Shown here: positions 34,172 through 43,420 of the stretch, piece after piece
Position numbering within the stretch: the stretch's first letter is position 1
Layout: every line of letters starts with the position of its first letter
DNA from: Clostridia bacterium
Lineage (GTDB): Bacteria > Bacillota > Clostridia > Christensenellales > Aristaeellaceae
Length of the DNA stretch: 64,000 nucleotides
Direction: 5' to 3'
Assembly: GCA_017463245.1 (NCBI GenBank)
Contig: JAFTPN010000017.1
Span: forward strand, 88,422-152,421
Program-made: the position numbers and the translations under genes
Notes under the pieces: model-generated
What the model was told of the DNA's origin: nothing
Seen by the model: the letters and a program-made list of their open reading frames with translations, nothing else
Database searches by the model: none

Positions 34172-34660
34172 ATGGAAGACTTTGAGAAAATGTGTCACCA
34201 GGAATACCAAACGGTGCAGAAGTTCCTGCTGCGCCTGAGCGGCAATGCCGAGCTGGCGGAGGAGCTGACCCAGGAGACCTTCTACCAGGCGATGCGCAAG
34301 TGGAAAACCTTCCGCAACCAATGCGCGGTGTCCACCTGGCTGTGCGGCATTGCCAAGAACCTGTTTTACACCTACTGCCGCAAGCCCAAGCCAGCCCCCA
34401 TCGACCAGGTGCCTGAAAAACCGGGGGAGGACTTTGTGGACACGCTGCTGGACAAGGAGCAGCGCCTGCAGGCGCACAAGCTTCTGCACAGCCTGCCGGA
34501 GCCGTACAAGGAAGTGGTAACGCTGCGCACCTTTGGCGAGCTGACCCACCAGGAAATCGGCGCGCTGTTCGGTAAGCCCGAGCGCTGGGCGCGGGTGACC
34601 TATTACCGGGGCAGGCAGATGCTTGTCCGACTGATGAAGGGAGAGGAATTTGATGAGTGA
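34172..34660 (+). CDS. ECF-subfamily RNA polymerase sigma-70 factor
   Basis: Trimmed to ATG 34172 after GGAAGGAGG. Region 2 (..AEELTQETFYQAMRKWKTF....STWLCGIAKNLFY..) and region 4 (..PEPYKEVVTLRTFGELTHQEIGALFGKPERWARVTYYRGRQML..) are present. Confidence 0.88.
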   Translation: MEDFEKMCHQEYQTVQKFLLRLSGNAELAEELTQETFYQAMRKWKTFRNQCAVSTWLCGIAKNLFYTYCRKPKPAPIDQVPEKPGEDFVDTLLDKEQRLQAHKLLHSLPEPYKEVVTLRTFGELTHQEIGALFGKPERWARVTYYRGRQMLVRLMKGEEFDE

Positions 34661-35630
34661 TAAGAAGCAGCTGAATGATAAATGCGCCGTGGCTCGTGAC
34701 CTGATGCCCCTGTGCATCGACGGAACTGCCAGCGAGGCCAGCCAGCGCAAGGTGCGCAAGCACGTGGTGGACTGCCCGCCCTGCGCCACCGTGTATCAGG
34801 AAATGCAGACGCAGATCGACCTGGATATGCCTGACCAGCAGGAGGCCAAGCAGTTCGACACGGCGGTGAAAAAGGTGAAGCACAAGCACGCCTGGCGCAA
34901 GCTGCGCAATGTGCTGCTGGGCGTGGTGCTGGCGCTGGTGGTGTGCGCAGGGGCGGCCTATGGCTACTACTGGTACTTTGTGGAGGAAGTGCCCTTGCCG
35001 CTTGACACCTATAGCGTAGAGCTGGTGCTGCGCTCGCCCCAGAGTGAAAAGACGCCGGTGATCATCAAGGCGCAGAATATGCCCAAGCCTGCCGAATTGC
35101 AGGTGGCCTTGCAGCTTGACGGTTCCGTGATGGACGACAGCAACCAGCTGAGACCCTGCTGGGTGATGAACGTTTGGGCTACGGTGACCCGCTCGGTGAA
35201 CCTGGAAACTTGCGGCTACACGGATAACAATTACTACGCCTTTGATCAGCTGATGGAAGGCGAAAACATCTATGACGCTGGTGTATTCATGATCAACGGC
35301 GCACAGTATGATGTGCATACCATCTACAAGGGTGCTGTGGGCGACAAGCAGTCGCTGGTGTTCAAGCGCGGCATGGAGGGCTTTGACCTGGAATGGGAGA
35401 CCATGCAGGATGCTGTGCTGCGCAATGTGTCCTCGCTGACATTCGTGCAAAATAAGCAGGCTTCGGCGGCCTCGCGCAATGAACCGCCGTCCGTGATCAC
35501 CCCGGTGGCGACGCATATGCCTTTTGCCACCATGGAGCCTGTGGCGCTGGTCGATTCCACGCCGGATCCTGATGCTGTGGTTCACGCCACCGCTGCGCCC
35601 AGGCTGACGAAGACGCCTACCGCGAATTGA
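34653..35630 (+). CDS. anti-sigma factor (zf-HC2 N-terminus, single TM, large extracytoplasmic domain)
   Basis: The start overlaps the sigma gene stop. The zinc-binding HxxxCxxC motif is in RKHVVDCPPCATVYQ, followed by the TM segment VLLGVVLALVVCAGAAYGYYWYF. Confidence 0.75.
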   Translation: MSDKKQLNDKCAVARDLMPLCIDGTASEASQRKVRKHVVDCPPCATVYQEMQTQIDLDMPDQQEAKQFDTAVKKVKHKHAWRKLRNVLLGVVLALVVCAGAAYGYYWYFVEEVPLPLDTYSVELVLRSPQSEKTPVIIKAQNMPKPAELQVALQLDGSVMDDSNQLRPCWVMNVWATVTRSVNLETCGYTDNNYYAFDQLMEGENIYDAGVFMINGAQYDVHTIYKGAVGDKQSLVFKRGMEGFDLEWETMQDAVLRNVSSLTFVQNKQASAASRNEPPSVITPVATHMPFATMEPVALVDSTPDPDAVVHATAAPRLTKTPTAN

Positions 35631-35874
35631 TGCACTCCACGATCTCCACTAAGATCACATCATCGCCGATCTTGCAGATATTGTCCCAGGGGATCACAAT
35701 GCCGCAGCGCTCGCCCCGGAAGAGGGCGCTGAGGCTGAATTCCCCCGGCACCACCAGGGCGCTGACCCTGCCATCGGCGGCGCAGAACTCGATATCCATG
35801 GGCTTGCCCAGGGAGGCGCCCGTGAGGGTGTTGATCACGTCCTTCTGTTTCAGATCGCCAAGGGTCATGGACAT
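35617..35874 (-). CDS. YlmC/YmxH-family PRC-barrel protein
   Basis: MSMTLGDLKQKDVINTLTGASLGKPMDIEFCAADGRVSALVVPG...IPWDNICKIGDDVILVE matches the YlmC/YmxH pattern. The 3' end overlaps the convergent anti-sigma gene by 14 nt. Confidence 0.75.
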   Translation of the reverse strand: MSMTLGDLKQKDVINTLTGASLGKPMDIEFCAADGRVSALVVPGEFSLSALFRGERCGIVIPWDNICKIGDDVILVEIVECINSR

Positions 35875-35924
35875 CACCGGCCTTTCGCAGCAGTATATGC
35901 GCGGAAAGGCGGGAATGTGCCAGC

Positions 35925-36029
35925 CAACCCCTCAGTCAGCCGCAAGCGGCTGCCAGCTCCCCTGTGTAAGGGGAGCCTTTTTGCCTTCCCCTTGAGGGGA
36001 AGGTGGCTGAAGGCCGGATGAGGTGGAAA
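35925..36029 (+). repeat. composite repeat: F1-type modules fused to the right half of an F2 MITE
   Basis: CCCCTCAGTCAGCCGCAAGCGGCTGCCAGCTCCCCTGTGTAAGGGGAGCC is followed by CCTTCCCCTTGAGGGGAAGGTGGCTGAAGGCCGGATGAGGTGGAAAG. The right TIR is present at 36017-36029; the left TIR is absent. Confidence 0.7.
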
Positions 36030-36064
36030 GCAGCACACAAGCCCTGATACTTGGCTGCGCATCT

Positions 36065-36153
36065 GTAGGGGCGATCTGTGATCGCCCGCACGCCGCACAA
36101 AAGCATAGCAGGCAGGCAATGCAGCGTGGCGGGCGAACACAGTTCGCCCCTAC
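36065..36153. repeat. REP doublet (REPIN-like inverted pair)
   Basis: GTAGGGGCGATCTGTGATCGCCCGC (36065-36089) and the inverted GGCGGGCGAACACAGTTCGCCCCTAC (36128-36153), with a ~38-nt spacer related to the spacer after the single REP at 18012. Confidence 0.85.
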
Positions 36154-36200
36154 CGGCATCACAAGCGGCGCAATGAGACAAGGGGCAGAACCATTGCCTT

Positions 36201-36283
36201 TTGACGCGCAGCGAAAAAGTTTGATAATTTTCTCACAGAATCGGAAAATCCCCCTGTTCAGACCGGGAAAAGTGTGCTATACT
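36201..36283 (+). promoter_or_regulatory. candidate promoters of the IscU-like/GGGtGRT operon
   Basis: One candidate is TTGACG (36201-36206), 16-nt spacer, GATAAT (36223-36228). A second is the extended -10 TGcTATACT (36275-36283). Confidence 0.4.
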
Positions 36284-36342
36284 ATCATGGACAATGAATG
36301 TCCCCATGTCACGACTATCTCATGATAGGAGGAACCAATCCG

Positions 36343-37044
36343 ATGCTTTACACCAAGGAAGTTGAAGAAATGGTATGCGTCGCGAAGGGCCCCAACCACG
36401 GCCCCGCGCCCATCCCGGAAGAGGGCAAGTGGATCCAGGCCAAGGAGATCAAGGACATCTCCGGTCTGACTCACGGTATTGGCTGGTGCGCCCCCCAGCA
36501 GGGCACCTGCAAGCTGACCCTGAACGTGAAGGAAGGCGTCATCCAGGAAGCGCTGGTCGAGACCATCGGCTGCTCCGGCATGACCCACTCCGCCGCCATG
36601 GCCAGTGAGATCCTGCCCGGCAAGACCATCCTGGAGGCGCTGAACACCGACCTGGTGTGCGACGCCATCAACACCGCCATGCGCGAGCTGTTCCTGCAGA
36701 TCGTGTACGGCCGCACCCAGTCTGCCTTCTCTGACGACGGTCTGCGCATCGGCGCTGGCCTGGAAGACCTGGGCAAGGGCCTGCGCAGCCAGGTCGGCAC
36801 CATGTACGGCACCCTGGAAAAGGGCCCCCGCTACCTGGAAATGGCCGAAGGCTATGTGCTGAAGATCGCCCTGGACAAGGACAACCAGATCTGCGGCTAC
36901 CAGTTCCTGTCCCTGGGCAAGATGATGGACGCCATCAAGAAGGGCATGGAGCCCAACGAGGCCTACGAGAAGAACATCGGCACCTACGGCCGCTTCAAGG
37001 CCGAAGACGGCGCGGTCGCCTGGATCGACCCCCGCAAGCAGTAA
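36343..37044 (+). CDS. NifU/IscU N-terminal-like scaffold-domain protein with unknown C-terminal extension
   Basis: ATG 36343 lies 9 nt after GGAGGA. GIGWCAPQQGTCKLTLNVKEGVIQEALVETIGCSGMTHSAAMASEILPGKTILEALN..LVCDAINTAM resembles the IscU fold and keeps the three scaffold Cys positions. The last ~110 aa are unassigned. Confidence 0.65.
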   Translation: MLYTKEVEEMVCVAKGPNHGPAPIPEEGKWIQAKEIKDISGLTHGIGWCAPQQGTCKLTLNVKEGVIQEALVETIGCSGMTHSAAMASEILPGKTILEALNTDLVCDAINTAMRELFLQIVYGRTQSAFSDDGLRIGAGLEDLGKGLRSQVGTMYGTLEKGPRYLEMAEGYVLKIALDKDNQICGYQFLSLGKMMDAIKKGMEPNEAYEKNIGTYGRFKAEDGAVAWIDPRKQ

Positions 37045-37062
37045 TTAAAGGAGGTATGTGAT

Positions 37063-38080
37063 AATGGCTCTGTTTGAAAACTACGAAGGCCGCATGCCTC
37101 AGCTGCAGCCTGTTCTGGAAAAGTACGGCTTTGCCTCCTGGGAAGACCTGAAGGCTTACAACAACTCCAAGGGCGTGGACGGCTACGGCATCACCGAAGG
37201 CATCCAGCCCATCTGCTTCGAGAATGCCAAGTGGGCCTACGAGCTGGGCGCCGGCATTGCTCTGAAGAAGGGCGTGAAGACTGCTAAGGAAGCCGCCGTG
37301 TGCATCGGCGAAGCCCTGCAGGCCTTCTGCATCCCCGGCTCCGTTGCCGACCAGCGTCAGGTTGGTCTGGGTCACGGCAACCTGGGCGCCATGCTGCTGG
37401 ACGAAGCCACCGAGTGCTTCGCTTTCCTGGCTGGCCACGAGTCCTTCGCTGCTGCTGAAGGCGCCATCGGCATCGCCCGCAATGCCAACAAGGTTCGTAA
37501 GAACCCCCTGCGCGTGATCCTGAACGGCCTGGGCAAGGACGCCGCCATGATCATCAGCCGCATCAACGGCTTCACCTATGTGGAGACCAAGTACGACTAC
37601 CTGTCTGCCGACGTGAAGGAAGACCATGCCCTGACCATCGTGAAGAAGACCGCTTATTCCGATGGCGAGCGCGCCAAGGTCAACTGCTACGGCGCTGACG
37701 ATGTGCGCGAAGGCGTGGCCATCATGTGGCACGAGGGCGTGGGCGTTTCCATCACCGGTAACTCCACCAACCCCACCCGCTTCCAGCACCCCGTTGCCGG
37801 CACCTACAAGAAGGAAATGATCGAGGCTGGCAAGAAGTACTTCTCCGTTGCCTCCGGCGGCGGCACCGGCCGTACCCTGCATCCCGACAACATGGCTGCC
37901 GGCCCTGCCTCCTACGGCATGACCGACACCCTGGGCCGTATGCACTCCGACGCTCAGTTCGCTGGCTCCTCTTCCGTGCCCGCTCACGTGGAGATGATGG
38001 GTCTGATCGGCATGGGCAACAACCCCATGGTTGGTGCTACCGTGGCCGTGGCTGTGGCCGTGGAGAATGCCTCCAAGTAA
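37063..38080 (+). CDS. GGGtGRT-family protein (conserved, function unknown)
   Basis: ATG 37063 lies 9 nt after AAGGAGG. It contains the signature SVASGGGTGRTLHPDNMAAGPASYGMTD. Codon bias is strong (cgt, ggt, tcc, gct, ctg, aag). Confidence 0.8.
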
Positions 38081-38082
38081 TC
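38027..38082 (+). repeat. direct repeat DR1 (3' end of the GGGtGRT gene)
   Basis: ATGGTTGGTGCTACCGTGGCCGTGGCTGTGGCCGTGGAGAATGCCTCCAAGTAATC recurs at 38770-38825 with 54/56 identity by hand alignment. Confidence 0.9.
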
Positions 38083-38089
38083 AGGTTTT

Positions 38090-38126
38090 AAGAAGGGCAG
38101 AAGTGATTCTGCCCTTCTTTATTATT
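38090..38126 (+). terminator. rho-independent terminator (AT-rich, belongs to the inserted segment)
   Basis: AAGAAGGGCAGA-AGTGAT-TCTGCCCTTCTT followed by TATTATT. Confidence 0.65.
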
Positions 38127-38139
38127 GAAGGTGAAGTGG

Positions 38140-38730
38140 ATGGATGCATTAACTTTTTCCTTTTTTGCATTTCTCATTCGAGGTGTGTTTCTTGGCTTTG
38201 TTACCCAGCATATTGCAACCAGCAAAGGATATGAAACGGGATTTGCTTGGGGTTTTTGGCTTGGTTTGATAGGTGTATTCGTAGTTGCGGTAAAACCGGA
38301 AGTCAATGTATCAGCTCATAATTACGGAGAGAAAAACCAATATTGGAAGCGACTTGCTGGAGAAACGCCTAAACAAGCCCCTTGGTGTTGCGTGTGTGGA
38401 CAAGAGAATGTTGCCGATTTGCAATATTGTACCAGATGTGGACGCACGAAGGAAGAAGGCGAAAGCAAGGCGTTTGTGAAGGTGGAATGCTCGTATTGCG
38501 GGGCCAAAAACAATGCAAGCAACGAAGAGTGTTTTGCTTGCGGACGCTCTTTGAAAAATTCTTCTTACACACCGGCAGTGCAGACAGTCAGGCAAGAAAC
38601 GCCGAAACAGGTTGTTGGTGATGTCGACAGCCTGGAAGCGTTGAAAAAACTTGCAGAATTGCGAGATTTAGGTGTGTTGACTGAGAATGAATTCCAAGAA
38701 AAGAAAGCGGCTATCATGGCTAAGATATGA
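38140..38730 (+). CDS. membrane protein with two zinc-ribbon motifs and a C-terminal SHOCT domain (low-GC cassette gene)
   Basis: ATG 38140 follows GAAGGTGA; TTG 38125 is possible. Two N-terminal TM helices. CxxC...CxxC pairs at CCVCGQENVADLQYCTRCG and CSYCGAKNNASNEECFACG. The C-terminus LEALKKLAELRDLGVLTENEFQEKKAAIM is SHOCT-like. Line 38161-38220 has 24/60 G+C. Confidence 0.7.
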   Translation: MDALTFSFFAFLIRGVFLGFVTQHIATSKGYETGFAWGFWLGLIGVFVVAVKPEVNVSAHNYGEKNQYWKRLAGETPKQAPWCCVCGQENVADLQYCTRCGRTKEEGESKAFVKVECSYCGAKNNASNEECFACGRSLKNSSYTPAVQTVRQETPKQVVGDVDSLEALKKLAELRDLGVLTENEFQEKKAAIMAKI

Positions 38731-38769
38731 TGCGATATGGGTGAGGCTGGAGAGTTGAAGTAACAATCG

Positions 38770-38823
38770 ATGGTTGGTGCTACCGTTGCCGTGGCTGTGG
38801 CCGTGGAGAACGCCTCCAAGTAA
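38770..38823 (+). pseudogene. orphan duplicate of the last 17 codons of the GGGtGRT gene
   Basis: Encodes MVGATVAVAVAVENASK*, identical in protein to the end of the 37063..38080 product. It differs at two synonymous positions (GTG/GTT, AAT/AAC) and has no upstream reading frame. Confidence 0.8.
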
Positions 38824-38825
38824 TC
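38770..38825 (+). repeat. direct repeat DR2
   Basis: Second copy of the 56-nt repeat. It is followed by a diverged but recognisably related terminator region (GGTTTCAA...GAAGGGCAGA). Confidence 0.9.
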
Positions 38826-38838
38826 TCTGGTTTCAATC

Positions 38839-38873
38839 GGGTCTGTCCGGAAGGGCAGACCCTTTCTCGTTTT
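38839..38873 (+). terminator. rho-independent terminator (probably the original terminator of the GGGtGRT operon)
   Basis: GGGTCTG-TCCGGAAGGG-CAGACCC followed by TTTCTCGTTTT. Confidence 0.65.
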
Positions 38874-38895
38874 CGCTAAGGGGTAACGGCCGTAG

Positions 38896-39019
38896 TTTCC
38901 ACCTCATCAGTCAGCGCAAGCGCTGACAGCTTCCCCTCAAGGGGAAGCCTTGGTGCATGGTCAAGCAATATGCCTTCCCCTTGAGGGGAAGGTGGCCGAA
39001 GGCCGGATGAGGTGGAAAG
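38896..39019 (+). mobile_element. MITE-like element F2, short form
   Basis: TTTCCACCTCATC AGTCAGCGCAAGCGCTGAC AGCTTCCCCTCAAGGGGAAGC ... CCTTCCCCTTGAGGGGAAGG TGGCCGAAGGCC G GATGAGGTGGAAA. Confidence 0.85.
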
Positions 39020-39056
39020 CTGCTGGAGCGTAACCTATGTAGGAGGCTGATGCCTG

Positions 39057-39140
39057 ATGTGGATCCTATTGACCTACGTATTCCTGCCCATTGTGGCCAT
39101 CCTGGTGCTGAACTGGCTGTTCAAGCGGTCGATGAAATAA
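39057..39140 (+). CDS. possible 27-aa hydrophobic micro-protein
   Basis: Hand translation gives MWILLTYVFLPIVAILVLNWLFKRSMK*. TAGGAGG lies 10 nt upstream. Single TM-like peptide with no homology support. Confidence 0.3.
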   Translation: MWILLTYVFLPIVAILVLNWLFKRSMK

Positions 39141-39179
39141 AGTTGGGGTCGTGTGCCATCTTGAAAAGGGGATTATCAG

Positions 39180-39578
39180 ATGTTTGAAAACATTGGCGGC
39201 AAGTTGAAGACATTTGCAAAAGTCAGTTTCTGGGTCGGTATGGTTTTTGCTGTGCTATTGGGTATTGTGGAAGCGGCGCAAAGCAAAAGCTTTCTGCTGG
39301 GCGTTTTGGAAACGGCGCTTTGGGCTTTGGGCATCTGGCTGGAGGCGCTGGTCGTTTATGCGGTTGGCGATATTGCGGAAAAGTCAGCAGAGAATAATAA
39401 GCTGTTAACGAAGATGGCGGCAAGTCAGTTGGAGCAGGAGCCGAAACGCGTCAGCAGACTGGATGCGCTGAGCAAGGATGAGCCAGCTCGCCCGACGGAC
39501 GGCTGGATCTGCGAACAGTGCGGCATGAGGAATAGTTCAGGCGCAAGATTTTGTAAGGGCTGTGGAAATTACAAGTAA
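39180..39578 (+). CDS. membrane protein with C-terminal zinc ribbon
   Basis: 132 aa. Two TM helices (VSFWVGMVFAVLLGIV.., LWALGIWLEALVVYAVG) and the C-terminal WICEQCGMRNSSGARFCKGCGNYK. By eye its third-position G+C is lower than in the neighbouring core genes (not counted). Confidence 0.65.
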   Translation: MFENIGGKLKTFAKVSFWVGMVFAVLLGIVEAAQSKSFLLGVLETALWALGIWLEALVVYAVGDIAEKSAENNKLLTKMAASQLEQEPKRVSRLDALSKDEPARPTDGWICEQCGMRNSSGARFCKGCGNYK

Positions 39579-39593
39579 TCACTCAAAATGACA

Positions 39594-39631
39594 GGGAGCT
39601 TCCTCCGGCGGGGGAGGCTCCCCTTTTGTTT
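39594..39631 (+). terminator. rho-independent terminator
   Basis: GGGAGCTTCCTCC-GGCG-GGGGAGGCTCCC followed by CTTTTGTTT. Confidence 0.7.
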
Positions 39632-39691
39632 CGAGAAAGTAAAGATTGGGTCAATTTTTTGCCCAAATGGACAATTTCAGCAAGAAAAGGG

Positions 39692-39720
39692 TTGAAATCC
39701 CAGCCTAAATCCTCTATAAT
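39692..39720 (+). promoter_or_regulatory. near-consensus sigma-A promoter of the ABC importer operon
   Basis: TTGAAA (39692-39697), 17-nt spacer, TATAAT (39715-39720). Confidence 0.7.
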
Positions 39721-39776
39721 ATAGGCAGATAAAGCTGGCACGTGATATCGCCAGCGAATAACGGAGGTAGAAACCT

Positions 39777-40814
39777 ATGAAGAAATTGGTTGCCCTGATG
39801 CTTGCCGTGCTGATGATCGGCAGCTGCTTCACCAGCGCCTTTGCCGTGAACGAGGATGTTTCCGGCAAGGTCATGATCTACACCTCGATGTATCAGTTCG
39901 TCATCGATATGATGGACGAAGCCATCAAGAAGGAATTCCCCAACCTGGAAGGCGCTAACGAAGGCTCTTTCTTCTTCTATGGCGGCACCGGCACCATCCA
40001 GCAGAAGGTGGAAGGCGAAATGGACACCGGCACCCTGGGCTGCGATATGCTGATGGTGGCTGAGCCTGCTTACTCCCTGCAGCTGCAGGAGGGCGGCTGG
40101 CTGCACCCCTATGTGGTGGAAGGCGCTGACGAGCTGCTCCGCTTTGACTACGACAAGGAAGGCTACTGGTACCCCGTTCGCGTGTGCAACATGGTGCTGG
40201 CCTACAACCCCGAAAAGTATTCCTACGACGAAGTGCCCCACACCTTCAAGGACTTCGCCTATGACACCAGCCTGAAGGGCCTGACCTCCATGGGCAACGC
40301 CATGACCAGCGGCACCACCATGGCTGCTGTGGCCGCCCTGACCGACAAGTATGGCTACGAGTATCTGGACGCCCTGGGCGCCAATGGTACCATGATCGAG
40401 TCCGGCTCCTCCGCCCTGGCGAAGCTGCAGACCGGCGAGTGCAAGGTCATCATGATCCTGGAAGAATCCGTGCTGAAGATCCGCGAGGAAGAAGGCAGCA
40501 AGATCGAGTGCATCTATCCCGAAGACGGCGTGATCCTGATCCCCTCCACCGTGATGACCGTGGCCGAGGATCGCAGCGCCAACATGAACGTGGAAGCTTG
40601 CGAAGCCCTGACCGAGTGGCTGCTGAGCGAAGAAGCCCAGAAGCTGATCCTGGAAGCTTACATGCACTCCGTGTTCGCCACCATGACCGAAGTGCCCTAT
40701 GACTCTGTGGACACCAATGGCCTGATCGAGAAGGACATGGGCGTTGATTGGGTTCGCTGCTACACCCAGCGCGACGAGATCCGCACCCAGTTCCAGGAGA
40801 AGGTTACCCAGTAA
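39777..40814 (+). CDS. ABC transporter substrate-binding lipoprotein (Fbp/Afu-like, family-1 SBP)
   Basis: MKKLVALMLAVLMIGSC has a lipobox. It is about 345 aa, periplasmic-binding-protein-like, and sits in an operon with a two-domain permease and a TOBE-containing ATPase. The codon bias is that of an abundant protein. Confidence 0.8.
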   Translation: MKKLVALMLAVLMIGSCFTSAFAVNEDVSGKVMIYTSMYQFVIDMMDEAIKKEFPNLEGANEGSFFFYGGTGTIQQKVEGEMDTGTLGCDMLMVAEPAYSLQLQEGGWLHPYVVEGADELLRFDYDKEGYWYPVRVCNMVLAYNPEKYSYDEVPHTFKDFAYDTSLKGLTSMGNAMTSGTTMAAVAALTDKYGYEYLDALGANGTMIESGSSALAKLQTGECKVIMILEESVLKIREEEGSKIECIYPEDGVILIPSTVMTVAEDRSANMNVEACEALTEWLLSEEAQKLILEAYMHSVFATMTEVPYDSVDTNGLIEKDMGVDWVRCYTQRDEIRTQFQEKVTQ

Positions 40815-40835
40815 TTTCAAGCACAGCGGTGCTTC

Positions 40836-40872
40836 CGCGGGGGAAGCCAATCATGGCTTCCCCCGCGTTTTG
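40836..40872 (+). terminator. strong intra-operon hairpin/terminator between the SBP and permease genes
   Basis: CGCGGGGGAAGCC-AATCAT-GGCTTCCCCCGCG (13-bp stem) followed by TTTTG. Confidence 0.7.
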
Positions 40873-40912
40873 AACATTTATGGATGAAACCGTCCAAAAG
40901 GGGGACGCACGG

Positions 40913-43420
40913 ATGAATAGCGCGGCTGAAATGCAGCGTGGTAAGCAGCGGGATTATACGCCGCTGATATCCAAGGTGATTATTGCCCTGCTCCTGATCC
41001 TCGGCCTGGCGATGATCGGCGCCGGTGTGATGGGCATCAGGGACTTTGACGCCTCCGGTTATGACGCGGAGGACGCTTACAGCGCCATTCGCGATCTGTC
41101 CGCTGTGGTGGACAGCGACTGGGAAACCAAGCTCCAGCCTCTCCTGGCGGAGCAGACCCCGGAGACCAAGGCCGAGCTGGATGCTGCTGCCTATGCCATG
41201 CTGGCAGAACTGTGGGAGAGCCAGCGCGAAGGCTCCACCGCTGATCTGGACGCCTGCCTGGCTTCCTTTGCCGAGGGTGAGCGTGCGGAGAAGACCTACC
41301 AGCTGCTGTATGCTGGCTATGCCGTGAATGGCCCCCGCATCACCACCGCTATCCGCAAGGAGCTGGCGCTGGTGCCTGCCGAAGAGCGCGAGGACTTCCG
41401 CCGCGCCGTGCTGGCCTGCATCACCGATGAAACCGCCCCCCTGCCCGCCAATGCCACCAAGGCTGCGGGCGAACTGGAGGGTGCCAAGCGTGCTGCCATG
41501 CTGATGCAGGTGTACTTCGTCAGCTATGACGATAGCGGCGTGGGCGTTGATACCGAGCTGGCCAACAGCTTCAAGAAGGCTGTGCGCAACAAGAGCGCGC
41601 AGCTGGATGCCTATGCCAAGGTGGTCTCCGGCGAAGTTGGCTGGCTGACCGCTACCGTGTTTGGCAACAGCCGCACCATCATCCTCCTGGGCATCCTGCT
41701 GGTGGTGGATATGCTGCTGCTGATCTTCCTGATGAGCAAGGAAAAGACCTGGATCATCGACTTCAAGTGGATCCTGATCCTGGCCATTGTGGACTTCCTG
41801 CTGGTATTCCAGCTCTTCCCGCTGATCTACCTGGCGGCCAAGGCTTTCATTGTGGATGGAGCCTTCAGCCTGGAGACCATCAAACGTTTGTATACCTATG
41901 AAATGAACCTGAAGGCGCTGCTCAACACGCTGATCGCCTCCGGTGCCACCATGGTGCTGGGTACCCTGCTGGCCTTCCCCCTGGCCTGGCTGGTGGGTCG
42001 CACCAACCTGTATGGCAAGAAATTCTTCCGCAGCCTGTTTGTATTGACCTACATGGTGCCGCCCTATGTGGGCGCCATGGCCTGGCTGCGCCTGTTGAAC
42101 CCCAATGTGGGCACCATCAACCAGGTCATCCGCATGATCTTCAACATGGGCGATGTCACCGGCCCGTTGAACATCTACTCCCTGGGCGGATTGATCTGGG
42201 TGCTGACCACCTTCTACTATCCCTACGCTTTCATCACCATCAGCCGAGCGATGGAGAAGATGGATCCCTCCCTGGAGGAAGCCAGCCGCATTTCCGGCGC
42301 TTCTCCCCTGAAGACCCTCTTCACCGTGACCCTGCCCATGATGACGCCCTCGCTCATCGCAGGCGCGCTGCTGGTGTTTGTGTGTGCCGCTTCCTGCTAC
42401 GGCATTCCCTCCATTATCGCTGCACCGGGCAAGGTGCATACGGTGACCACCCGCATCATCGACTACATGGGTCTGGGCGACCAGGGCATGAACGATGCCA
42501 CCGGCCTGGCGGTGTTCCTGATGGTGATCGCCATCATCGTCTTGTATGTTTCGGACTTTGTGGTGGCGAAGAAGCAGTACATCACCGTGTCCGGCAAGTC
42601 CACCCGCCCCAACATCGTTGACCTGCGGCGCTGGCGCATCCCCATGACGATCCTGGTGTCCCTGTTCGCCATCATCGTCATCGGCCTGCCCTTCGCCACC
42701 ATCCTCATCACCTCCTTCAAGGTGGACGTGGGCAAGGGTCTGTGGGAGGCTGGCAACTTCACCCTGAACCAGTGGACGCAGATCTTCGGTCGCACGGAGA
42801 CGCTTGCATCCCTGAAAAACTCGCTGATCTTCGGCGCGGTAACGGCGACCATCGGCATCGTGGTGGCCTGCGTGATGAGCTACCTCCTGCAGCGCACCCG
42901 CATCCGCGGCCGCAAGATCCCGGACTTCCTGATCACGCTGGGCTCCGGCACCCCCTCGGTGGTTATCGCCCTGGGTCTGATCATGACCATGAAGGGCAAC
43001 TATGGCGTGAACATCTACAACACCGCCTACATCATGATCGTGGCCTACCTGATCAAGTACCTGATGATGGGTATGCGCACGGTGGTTTCCGCCATGAGCC
43101 AGATCCACGTGTCCCTGGAGGAATGCAGCCAGGTCTCCGGCGCCAGCTGGCTGAGAACCATGTTCAAGATCACCGGCCCGCTGATCTTCCCCTCCATTGC
43201 GGCAGGCTGGTTCCTGATCTTCATCCCCAGCTTCTACGAGCTTTCCATGACGACGCTCCTGTATTCCAACAGCACCAAGACCATTGGCTTCCAGCTCTAT
43301 GAATACTGGACGTACACCAGCCAGCCCCAGAGCTGCGCCATGGCCTGCGGCATTCTGGGCGTGGTCATTCTGCTGAACTTTGTCCTCAACCGCCTCACCA
43401 AGGGCGAATTCTCCATCTGA
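40913..43420 (+). CDS. ABC importer permease, duplicated BPD_transp_1 type (FbpB-like), with ~300-aa N-terminal extension
   Basis: ATG 40913 lies 7 nt after AAGGGGGA; ATG 40880 is possible. The C-terminal ~540 aa contain two permease repeats with EAA-like loops (MDPSLEEASRISGASPLKTLFTVTLP ; HVSLEECSQVSGASWLRTMFKITGP). The N-terminus adds 3 TM segments and a ~190-aa helical loop. Confidence 0.8.
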   Translation: MNSAAEMQRGKQRDYTPLISKVIIALLLILGLAMIGAGVMGIRDFDASGYDAEDAYSAIRDLSAVVDSDWETKLQPLLAEQTPETKAELDAAAYAMLAELWESQREGSTADLDACLASFAEGERAEKTYQLLYAGYAVNGPRITTAIRKELALVPAEEREDFRRAVLACITDETAPLPANATKAAGELEGAKRAAMLMQVYFVSYDDSGVGVDTELANSFKKAVRNKSAQLDAYAKVVSGEVGWLTATVFGNSRTIILLGILLVVDMLLLIFLMSKEKTWIIDFKWILILAIVDFLLVFQLFPLIYLAAKAFIVDGAFSLETIKRLYTYEMNLKALLNTLIASGATMVLGTLLAFPLAWLVGRTNLYGKKFFRSLFVLTYMVPPYVGAMAWLRLLNPNVGTINQVIRMIFNMGDVTGPLNIYSLGGLIWVLTTFYYPYAFITISRAMEKMDPSLEEASRISGASPLKTLFTVTLPMMTPSLIAGALLVFVCAASCYGIPSIIAAPGKVHTVTTRIIDYMGLGDQGMNDATGLAVFLMVIAIIVLYVSDFVVAKKQYITVSGKSTRPNIVDLRRWRIPMTILVSLFAIIVIGLPFATILITSFKVDVGKGLWEAGNFTLNQWTQIFGRTETLASLKNSLIFGAVTATIGIVVACVMSYLLQRTRIRGRKIPDFLITLGSGTPSVVIALGLIMTMKGNYGVNIYNTAYIMIVAYLIKYLMMGMRTVVSAMSQIHVSLEECSQVSGASWLRTMFKITGPLIFPSIAAGWFLIFIPSFYELSMTTLLYSNSTKTIGFQLYEYWTYTSQPQSCAMACGILGVVILLNFVLNRLTKGEFSI

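Follow-up and report, generated by a model that had tools for sequence, protein, structure and literature searches.

How does a single gene of low G+C come to lie between two copies of the end of its upstream neighbor? The question is raised by a locus in a 64,000-nt stretch of a Clostridia bacterium (contig JAFTPN010000017.1, assembly GCA_017463245.1), which we call the window and number from its first letter. The upstream neighbor is a GGGtGRT gene, whose product gives a full-length match to PF14057 (E-value 9.5e-185), and the segment behind it, which encodes a predicted membrane protein with zinc-ribbon and SHOCT domains, is closed off by a second copy of the gene's 3' end. We find that this is a real site-specific accessory slot at the GGGtGRT 3' end. 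Our preferred reading, which we hold with a probability of roughly 60%, is that tyrosine-integrase prophages and integrative elements use the gene end as their attachment site in the chromosome (attB), and that the window carries an integrase-less islet at that site. In the searchable literature that mentions GGGtGRT we found no description of it as an attachment or integration site, so within that literature the site is previously undescribed.

The repeat and the insert

The direct repeat is 56 nt long and its two copies, the only two matches in the window, are identical at 54 positions; no such pair appeared in 100 shuffles. It holds the final 17 codons of the GGGtGRT gene, the stop codon and 2 nt beyond. 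Both differences are synonymous third-position changes, one in a valine codon (GTG at 38044 against GTT at 38787) and one in an asparagine codon (AAT at 38068 against AAC at 38811). An earlier reading of the window from its letters alone (the sequence-only reading) had given exactly these copies and differences. It had also reported weaker similarity between the terminator regions behind the two copies, and we find GGTTT[T/C]AA and GAAGGGCAGA in the same order after each. The 687 nt between the copies (38083-38769) have a G+C content of 0.443, where the gene has 0.618 and the window as a whole 0.603. As that reading had proposed, they carry their own terminator and one gene, whose product matches SHOCT (PF09851) above the cut-off and the double zinc ribbon DZR (PF12773) below it. 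The features of the locus, all on the plus strand, are as follows.

37064..38080, +, GGGtGRT gene (338 aa, PF14057), the target gene; the identical protein is encoded on 20 contigs
38012..38082, +, attB-equivalent identity block, ATGGGCAACAACCCC (ATGGTT...TAATC), the stretch reproduced by free-standing phage and element copies
38027..38082, +, left repeat copy, attL-like, the current gene end, which came with the insert; its G38044 and T38068 are absent from nine of nine empty sites
38083..38825, +, the 743 nt that the window has in addition to its empty-site relatives, which join 38082 to 38826 (the equivalent frame is 38027-38769)
38090..38119, +, predicted cassette-borne hairpin terminator with a 13-bp stem and a T-rich tail, conserved in P0002-type cassettes and present in a related version in the P0004 type
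38140..38730, +, cargo gene, 196 aa, with two predicted membrane helices, a double zinc ribbon (PF12773) and a C-terminal SHOCT domain (PF09851)
38600..38747, +, right-end conserved block, about 92-100% identity per 40-nt window by sliding identity among three double-copy cassette types
38731..38769, +, 39-nt spacer from the SHOCT stop codon to the right copy, beginning with TGCGATATGGGTGA, which cassette comparison shows to be conserved in the family
38770..38825, +, right repeat copy, attR-like, the displaced resident gene end, equal to the single copy of the empty sites L095, L098, L100 and L102
38839..38862, +, resident GGGtGRT terminator, a predicted hairpin that follows the single copy in all empty sites

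An assembly artefact, which the sequence-only reading had allowed for, is ruled out because the same filled structure, spanning both copies, occurs in contigs from at least six independent samples. We also rejected a transposon, insertion sequence or miniature inverted-repeat transposable element (MITE) as the insert, as the repeat analysis of the window found no inverted repeats at the insert ends and the duplication is 56 nt long and placed at a gene end.

Empty sites and the direction of insertion

Close relatives of the window tell which copy of the gene end is the newcomer. We searched for empty sites among contigs that encode a GGGtGRT protein identical to that of the window, and called a site empty when the GGGtGRT gene stands directly before the 132-aa gene found at 39180 in the window. 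Nine of the displayed places are empty and one is filled; when similar places that were not displayed are included the balance is about 15 empty to 2 filled, which accounts for 17 contigs. In all nine displayed empty sites (L094-L098 and L100-L103) position 38082 is joined to 38826, with one copy of the gene end and no insert. In the NifU-like and GGGtGRT genes these contigs share about 99% identity with the window, and downstream they diverge from it by 3-8%; they belong to close relatives, though not to the same strain. The adjacent upstream region of sigma-70, anti-sigma and PRC-barrel genes (34181-36381) is much more variable, differing by 7-30% between the window and the empty sites.

At the two positions where the repeat copies differ, the empty sites have T or C (38044) and C (38068), and four of them (L095, L098, L100 and L102) equal the right copy across all 56 nt. 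Since the variants in the empties are those of the right copy, this copy is the resident gene end, and the left copy, the end now in use, arrived with the insert. The same direction is seen in L104 and L107, where the left copy encodes a tail of the type ..ENASK and the displaced right copy encodes ..ENAQK, the tail of the related species L001. Of the two explanations offered by the sequence-only reading, the one in which the cassette recombined into the 3' end of the gene and brought a replacement end along is thus borne out. The left crossover itself could not be placed in the window, where comparison with the empties gives no excess of mismatches near the cassette.

The gene end as an integrase attachment site

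Several relatives show integrases at this same gene end. In L008, from a species whose GGGtGRT protein is 86% identical to that of the window, a 2.6-kb insert with a G+C content of 0.45 lies between two copies of the species' own gene end. It has TTGACCGC arm repeats near both of its ends, a gene for a CPBP-type protease and a decayed tyrosine integrase that has an in-frame stop codon and has lost its N-terminus. Homologues of this integrase all lie tail-to-tail against a GGGtGRT 3' end wherever their context can be read. The loci at which an integrase abuts the gene end are L008, L051, L110, L117, L119, L120-L123 and L124, and those with no further description elsewhere are:

L117, integrase P0028, abutting the GGGtGRT 3' end
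L119, integrase P0030, abutting the GGGtGRT 3' end
L051, an integrase, abutting the GGGtGRT 3' end
L120-L123, integrase P0042, abutting the GGGtGRT 3' end and lying beside an S24 repressor, SSB and a primase

The repressor, SSB and primase make the elements of the last type look like prophages rather than integrative and conjugative elements (ICEs). Further evidence for phage use of the site comes from the viral contig L124, which holds a free-standing copy of the gene end, encoding MGNNPMVGATVAVAVAVENASK* with no gene body attached, next to an integrase and with at least eight TGGGGACA repeats distributed over both sides of the copy. This arrangement looks like a phage attachment site (attP). 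Other free-standing copies, each with its own arm-type repeats, are found in L127, L136 and L141 (MT836118.1). The copies in L124, L127, L008, L136 and L141 all start at ATGGG(C/T)AAC, which is 15 nt upstream of the point where the right copy of the SHOCT cassettes starts.

The slot has been found empty, filled with three alleles of the SHOCT cassette, filled with the 2.6-kb L008 element and filled with prophage-like elements. This agrees with the site-specific accessory slot that the sequence-only reading had proposed, and its suggested comparison of related genomes for empty sites, filled sites and sites with other cargo has turned up all three states. Its remark that no integrase is present holds for the 64 kb of the window but overlooks the integrases that target this sequence in relatives.

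Two groups of loci connect the SHOCT cassette with integrase elements. In L110 a P0002 cassette is followed by its right copy, by a terminator that we label terminator', by three copies of TTTGTCCAC and by the 3' end of an integrase in reverse orientation. This is a case of tandem accretion, with an integrase element joined to the right copy of the cassette, in a relative of the window and not in the window itself. In the P0008 loci the SHOCT gene is placed between a core copy and the same terminator', and this is followed on the right by arm-type repeats and an integrase stub of 20 aa.

The gut phage contig L141 (positions 1-420, from an uncultured phage) differs from the other integrase loci. 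Its free-standing end is of the ..AIQEAAEQGKF type with CTACCTACCC repeats, and the N-terminus of its integrase is oriented opposite to the other integrase family, so at least two integrase lineages seem to use the GGGtGRT end. The gene end itself also varies among lineages. The residues that follow ..VAVAV in the proteins of L001-L080 include ENASK, ENAQK, EEAQKA, EEAVK, EQSQK, AQAMAK and others, and many tblastn matches to GGGtGRT end at residue 322. The working end in L008 is AQAMAK and the displaced one is AQAMNK. Replacement of gene ends by integrating elements may drive this variability of the C-terminal tail and explain its differences between lineages.

The cargo gene and its cassette family

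Homologues of the cargo protein are rare, with 26 clusters in 5.8 billion proteins. The two closest, P0002 (79% identical) and P0004 (60% identical), have the layout of the window, in which the gene starts 59 nt behind the GGGtGRT stop codon. In the cassettes of these two types the stop codon is followed by TGCGATAT(G/A)GGTGA, the spacer terminates in GTGACAATCC and the second gene-end copy starts at ATGGTTGG. The right junction is common to the cassettes of P0001 (the window), P0002 and P0004, and the context downstream of the second copy differs among the hosts of these double-copy cassettes. More distant homologues depart from this layout by degrees: P0008 (44%) lies behind a GGGtGRT stop codon without a second copy, P0007 (50%) follows a degenerate free-standing gene-end copy, and P0010 (43%) and P0020 (40%) are ordinary chromosomal genes elsewhere. 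The site-bound cassettes all have a G+C content of about 0.44 in hosts of about 0.60.

The defence-system and NCBIfam libraries gave no match for the cargo protein, the 687-nt insert had no match among GenBank phages, and neither the conserved block nor the protein matched anything in IMG/VR. A profile of the family found only two partial matches in the viral collection, both to the membrane segment. The gene is under purifying selection, since dN/dS (the ratio of nonsynonymous to synonymous change) is 0.25-0.31 throughout the comparisons of its alleles. Because it is tied to the GGGtGRT attachment site we consider the protein a candidate for phage exclusion or an envelope function.

The resident 132-aa gene behind the slot (39180-39578) encodes a protein with the layout of the cargo protein, two membrane helices and then a zinc ribbon. 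The two proteins are weakly similar, with 25% identity over 125 aa and a pairwise E-value of 7e-6.

Probable exchange of cassettes between lineages

The host gene of L105 is 96% identical to that of the window and its cassette only 72% identical. L104 and L105 show the reverse: their host genes are only about 80% identical upstream of position -337, and the two contigs are 99.7% identical in the tract of about 1,090 nt that begins at -336, spans the whole cassette and ends within the right copy, where three mismatches are all that separate them. They diverge again at the last codons. This tract has the shape expected of a double crossover that used the gene body and the duplicated end as its arms, and homologous recombination is indicated because this cross-species tract begins inside the GGGtGRT gene, 283 nt upstream of the repeat.

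The cargo alleles are themselves mosaic. The synonymous divergence (dS) ranges from 0.78 to saturation in the 5' 120 codons and is 0.04-0.2 in the 3' 85 codons. A switch of another kind occurs in L082 (contig k141_46130), compared here with 36268-41000. To the left of about 38006 it has 51-90% identity to the window and a GGGtGRT gene of 332 aa; from about 38006 on, more than 3 kb match the window without a difference, which places the switch at most 74 nt before the stop codon. Either the assembly is a chimera joined at the conserved end of the gene, or the contig is a large recombinant, and we set the contig aside as possibly chimeric.

Proposed explanation and its alternatives

Our explanation starts from the insertion polymorphism, the identity of the new copy, the use of the site by integrases in relatives, the recurrence of the cassette and its mosaic alleles, all of which we take as established. 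The last 70 nt or so of the GGGtGRT gene would be the chromosomal attB for tyrosine-integrase prophages and integrative elements of gut Clostridia. Such elements bring a gene end of their own, so that integration would rebuild the gene and push the original end downstream, where it becomes a direct repeat. The islet of the window has the corresponding order of replacement gene end, terminator, membrane/zinc-ribbon/SHOCT gene, 39-nt spacer, displaced end and resident terminator. It may descend from one integration, for which a site-specific integrase or a single crossover of the Campbell type could have been responsible; in both cases the islet would have ended up with neither integrase nor arm sites. 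Its present spread between lineages would be mainly by homologous recombination, with the gene body as left arm and the duplicated end together with the conserved right block as right arm. It may be lost by recombination between its two copies, which would restore a perfect empty site.

A number of observations weigh against this explanation. A tblastn search found no integrase homologue in the whole 64 kb, and the arm motifs of L008, L110/L127 and L124 are not clustered in 37900-39200. The right copy in the window (38770-38825) starts 15 nt later than every identity block of the integrase type. The left terminator of the cassette shares GGAAGGGCAGA-type sequence with the resident terminator, and so looks host-derived rather than phage-derived. 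SHOCT was not seen inside any element that retains an integrase gene, the decayed P0008 loci being the nearest case, and the family is absent from the IMG/VR and GenBank phages that were searched. The low G+C content is weak evidence for a foreign origin, because a distant homologue that is an ordinary chromosomal gene is also AT-richer than its genome (0.49 compared to 0.64). The L104 tract, on which the idea of present spread by homologous recombination depends, comes from metagenome-assembled contigs and could be a chimera. In addition, no repeated 8-mers other than the terminator stem were found near the cassette ends, and no intact progenitor element of the SHOCT cassette was found. A search of the metagenome collection for the circle-junction pattern gave 0 matches, as did the control pattern for the cassette itself, so that this absence counts neither for nor against a circular form.

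Several of these observations would be expected if no integrase had ever been involved. A circle or linear fragment carrying a host gene end, a terminator and the SHOCT gene could have entered by a RecA-dependent route, either through a Campbell single crossover within the 56 nt of homology or through a double crossover with one arm in the body of the gene and one in the copied end. That a phage attachment site overlaps the repeat would then be coincidental, or would just reflect how conserved the sequence is. This account fits the lack of arm-type repeats in the cassette, the similarity of its left terminator to the resident one, the right copy being shorter than the integrase-type blocks, the start of the L104/L105 tract within the gene and the frequent homologous recombination visible in the mosaic alleles. 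However, it leaves unexplained how a copy of the target end came to be on the far side of the first cassette. The duplicated stretch also falls inside the block of which at least five integrase elements or phages, independent of one another, have a copy, and in L110 an integrase element has integrated at the right copy of just such a cassette. We consider entry by RecA alone to be possible but on the whole unlikely.

The cassette could instead be an old resident of the clade, so that most of the polymorphism reflects loss between the direct repeats and the two copies have been kept alike by gene conversion. The deep divergence of the alleles (dS about 1 or saturated in the 5' 120 codons) and the same junction in several lineages would fit with this, and loss between the repeats would leave empty sites as perfect as the ones observed. 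But apart from the possibly chimeric L082, every contig in which the filled P0001 allele is seen has at least 98% identity to the window. Long residence is also difficult to reconcile with lineages that are 96% identical in the gene having cassettes only 72% identical, with an identical cassette in hosts whose genes differ by 20%, and with a left copy that differs from all of the empties when the right copy equals them. We regard this account as quite improbable. The other suggestion of the sequence-only reading, that the right copy is what remains of a second tandem GGGtGRT paralog nearly all of which was replaced, has the existence of a second gene end as its sole point in favor and is effectively refuted by the lack of GGGtGRT homology to the left of the right copy in any cassette type, by relatives that have a single gene and a precise empty site, and by the same short piece standing free in phage attachment sites.

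We continue to favor a gene end used as attB by integrases and occupied in the window by an islet that has no integrase of its own. The 3' end of GGGtGRT would be a recurrent integration hot spot in gut Clostridia; the gene is conserved and is mentioned in metaproteome studies of gut and rumen. The islet would give a natural example of a decayed, attachment-site-flanked unit that ordinary recombination keeps in motion. In genome annotation such slots can be recognized by a short orphan duplicate of a gene's end lying behind that gene.

A bolder version of this idea, which we find distinctly doubtful, is that the SHOCT unit is a minimal mobile cassette, consisting of one gene with no recombinase and using a portable copy of its target's 3' end as attachment site or homology arm. 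If this were true, a GGGtGRT gene would be all that a genome needs to receive it, irrespective of the downstream context, either with the borrowed integrases of phages that use the same site or via RecA. It would then be the smallest attachment-site hitch-hiker described and a single-gene route across species boundaries in gut Clostridia.

Other variation at the locus

The region behind the slot is variable as well. Just downstream of the resident terminator lies a 164-nt palindromic interspersed element (38874-39037), which is absent from the empty sites, where about 53 nt of other sequence take its place. The window has 7 occurrences of its end motif where 0.04 would be expected, with related ends at 351, 8915, 14007, 26874, 26979 and 36016. 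As single-stranded DNA the palindrome is predicted to fold with -53 kcal/mol (z = -8). It looks like an element of the repetitive extragenic palindromic (REP) or MITE type, and thus a second, independent indel at the locus.

Between the palindrome and the 132-aa gene there is a small open reading frame for a hydrophobic protein of 27 aa (MWILLTYVFLPIVAILVLNWLFKRSMK, 39058-39141). Contig L093 is 100% identical to the window from 39049 on, and upstream of that point has two genes of the RHH_5 type (CopG-like; L093 1-360) instead. This switch in identity at 39049 suggests another variable junction.

Comparison with known systems

Temperate phages and integrative elements are known that integrate at the 3' ends of genes for tRNAs or proteins and bring a replacement end in their attP. 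The GGGtGRT loci resemble this in that the identity block begins within the coding sequence and extends slightly beyond the stop codon, the gene is rebuilt with the end borne by the element and the original end becomes the distal repeat, and the free-standing copy of L124 is attP-like, with arm repeats on both sides. The window differs in that its insert has none of the machinery of an element, and an integrase using the GGGtGRT end as attB is found in the relatives only. The target gene (PF14057) is also a new one for such a site in the literature searched.

Allelic replacement of cassettes through flanking homology is familiar from variable loci of naturally recombining bacteria. Anciently diverged alleles between conserved flanks, mosaic breakpoints and tracts that extend into the flanking gene are all found here. 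The difference is that the right flank is a portable copy of the end of the left flank, and because of this the downstream context can vary between hosts.

Elements of the ICESt1/ICESt3 family are located at the 3' end of fda. For this family, in streptococci, cis-mobilizable elements (CIMEs) have been defined and their tandem accretion described (reviewed in PMC5704250). The islet of the window departs from these in being only 743 bp long with one gene and no detectable arm-type sites, in having a right repeat that lacks the first 15 nt of the identity block, in being related to integrase elements that are prophage-like and not ICEs, and in that the sole traceable transfer of a cassette resembles homologous recombination. 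It shares with them foreign DNA without genes for integration or transfer (here a single cargo gene), flanking direct repeats in which the 3' end of the conserved protein-coding gene that serves as attB is duplicated, empty sites in relatives, and, as L110 shows, tandem arrangement with an incoming integrase element at one of the repeats. The window has both core copies and neither an integrase nor arm sites, so that the membership of its islet among CIMEs, assigned from sequence features, is only partial. The islet behaves, in these respects, as a decayed, CIME-like islet flanked by attachment sites and seated in what is probably a phage attachment site at the end of the GGGtGRT gene.

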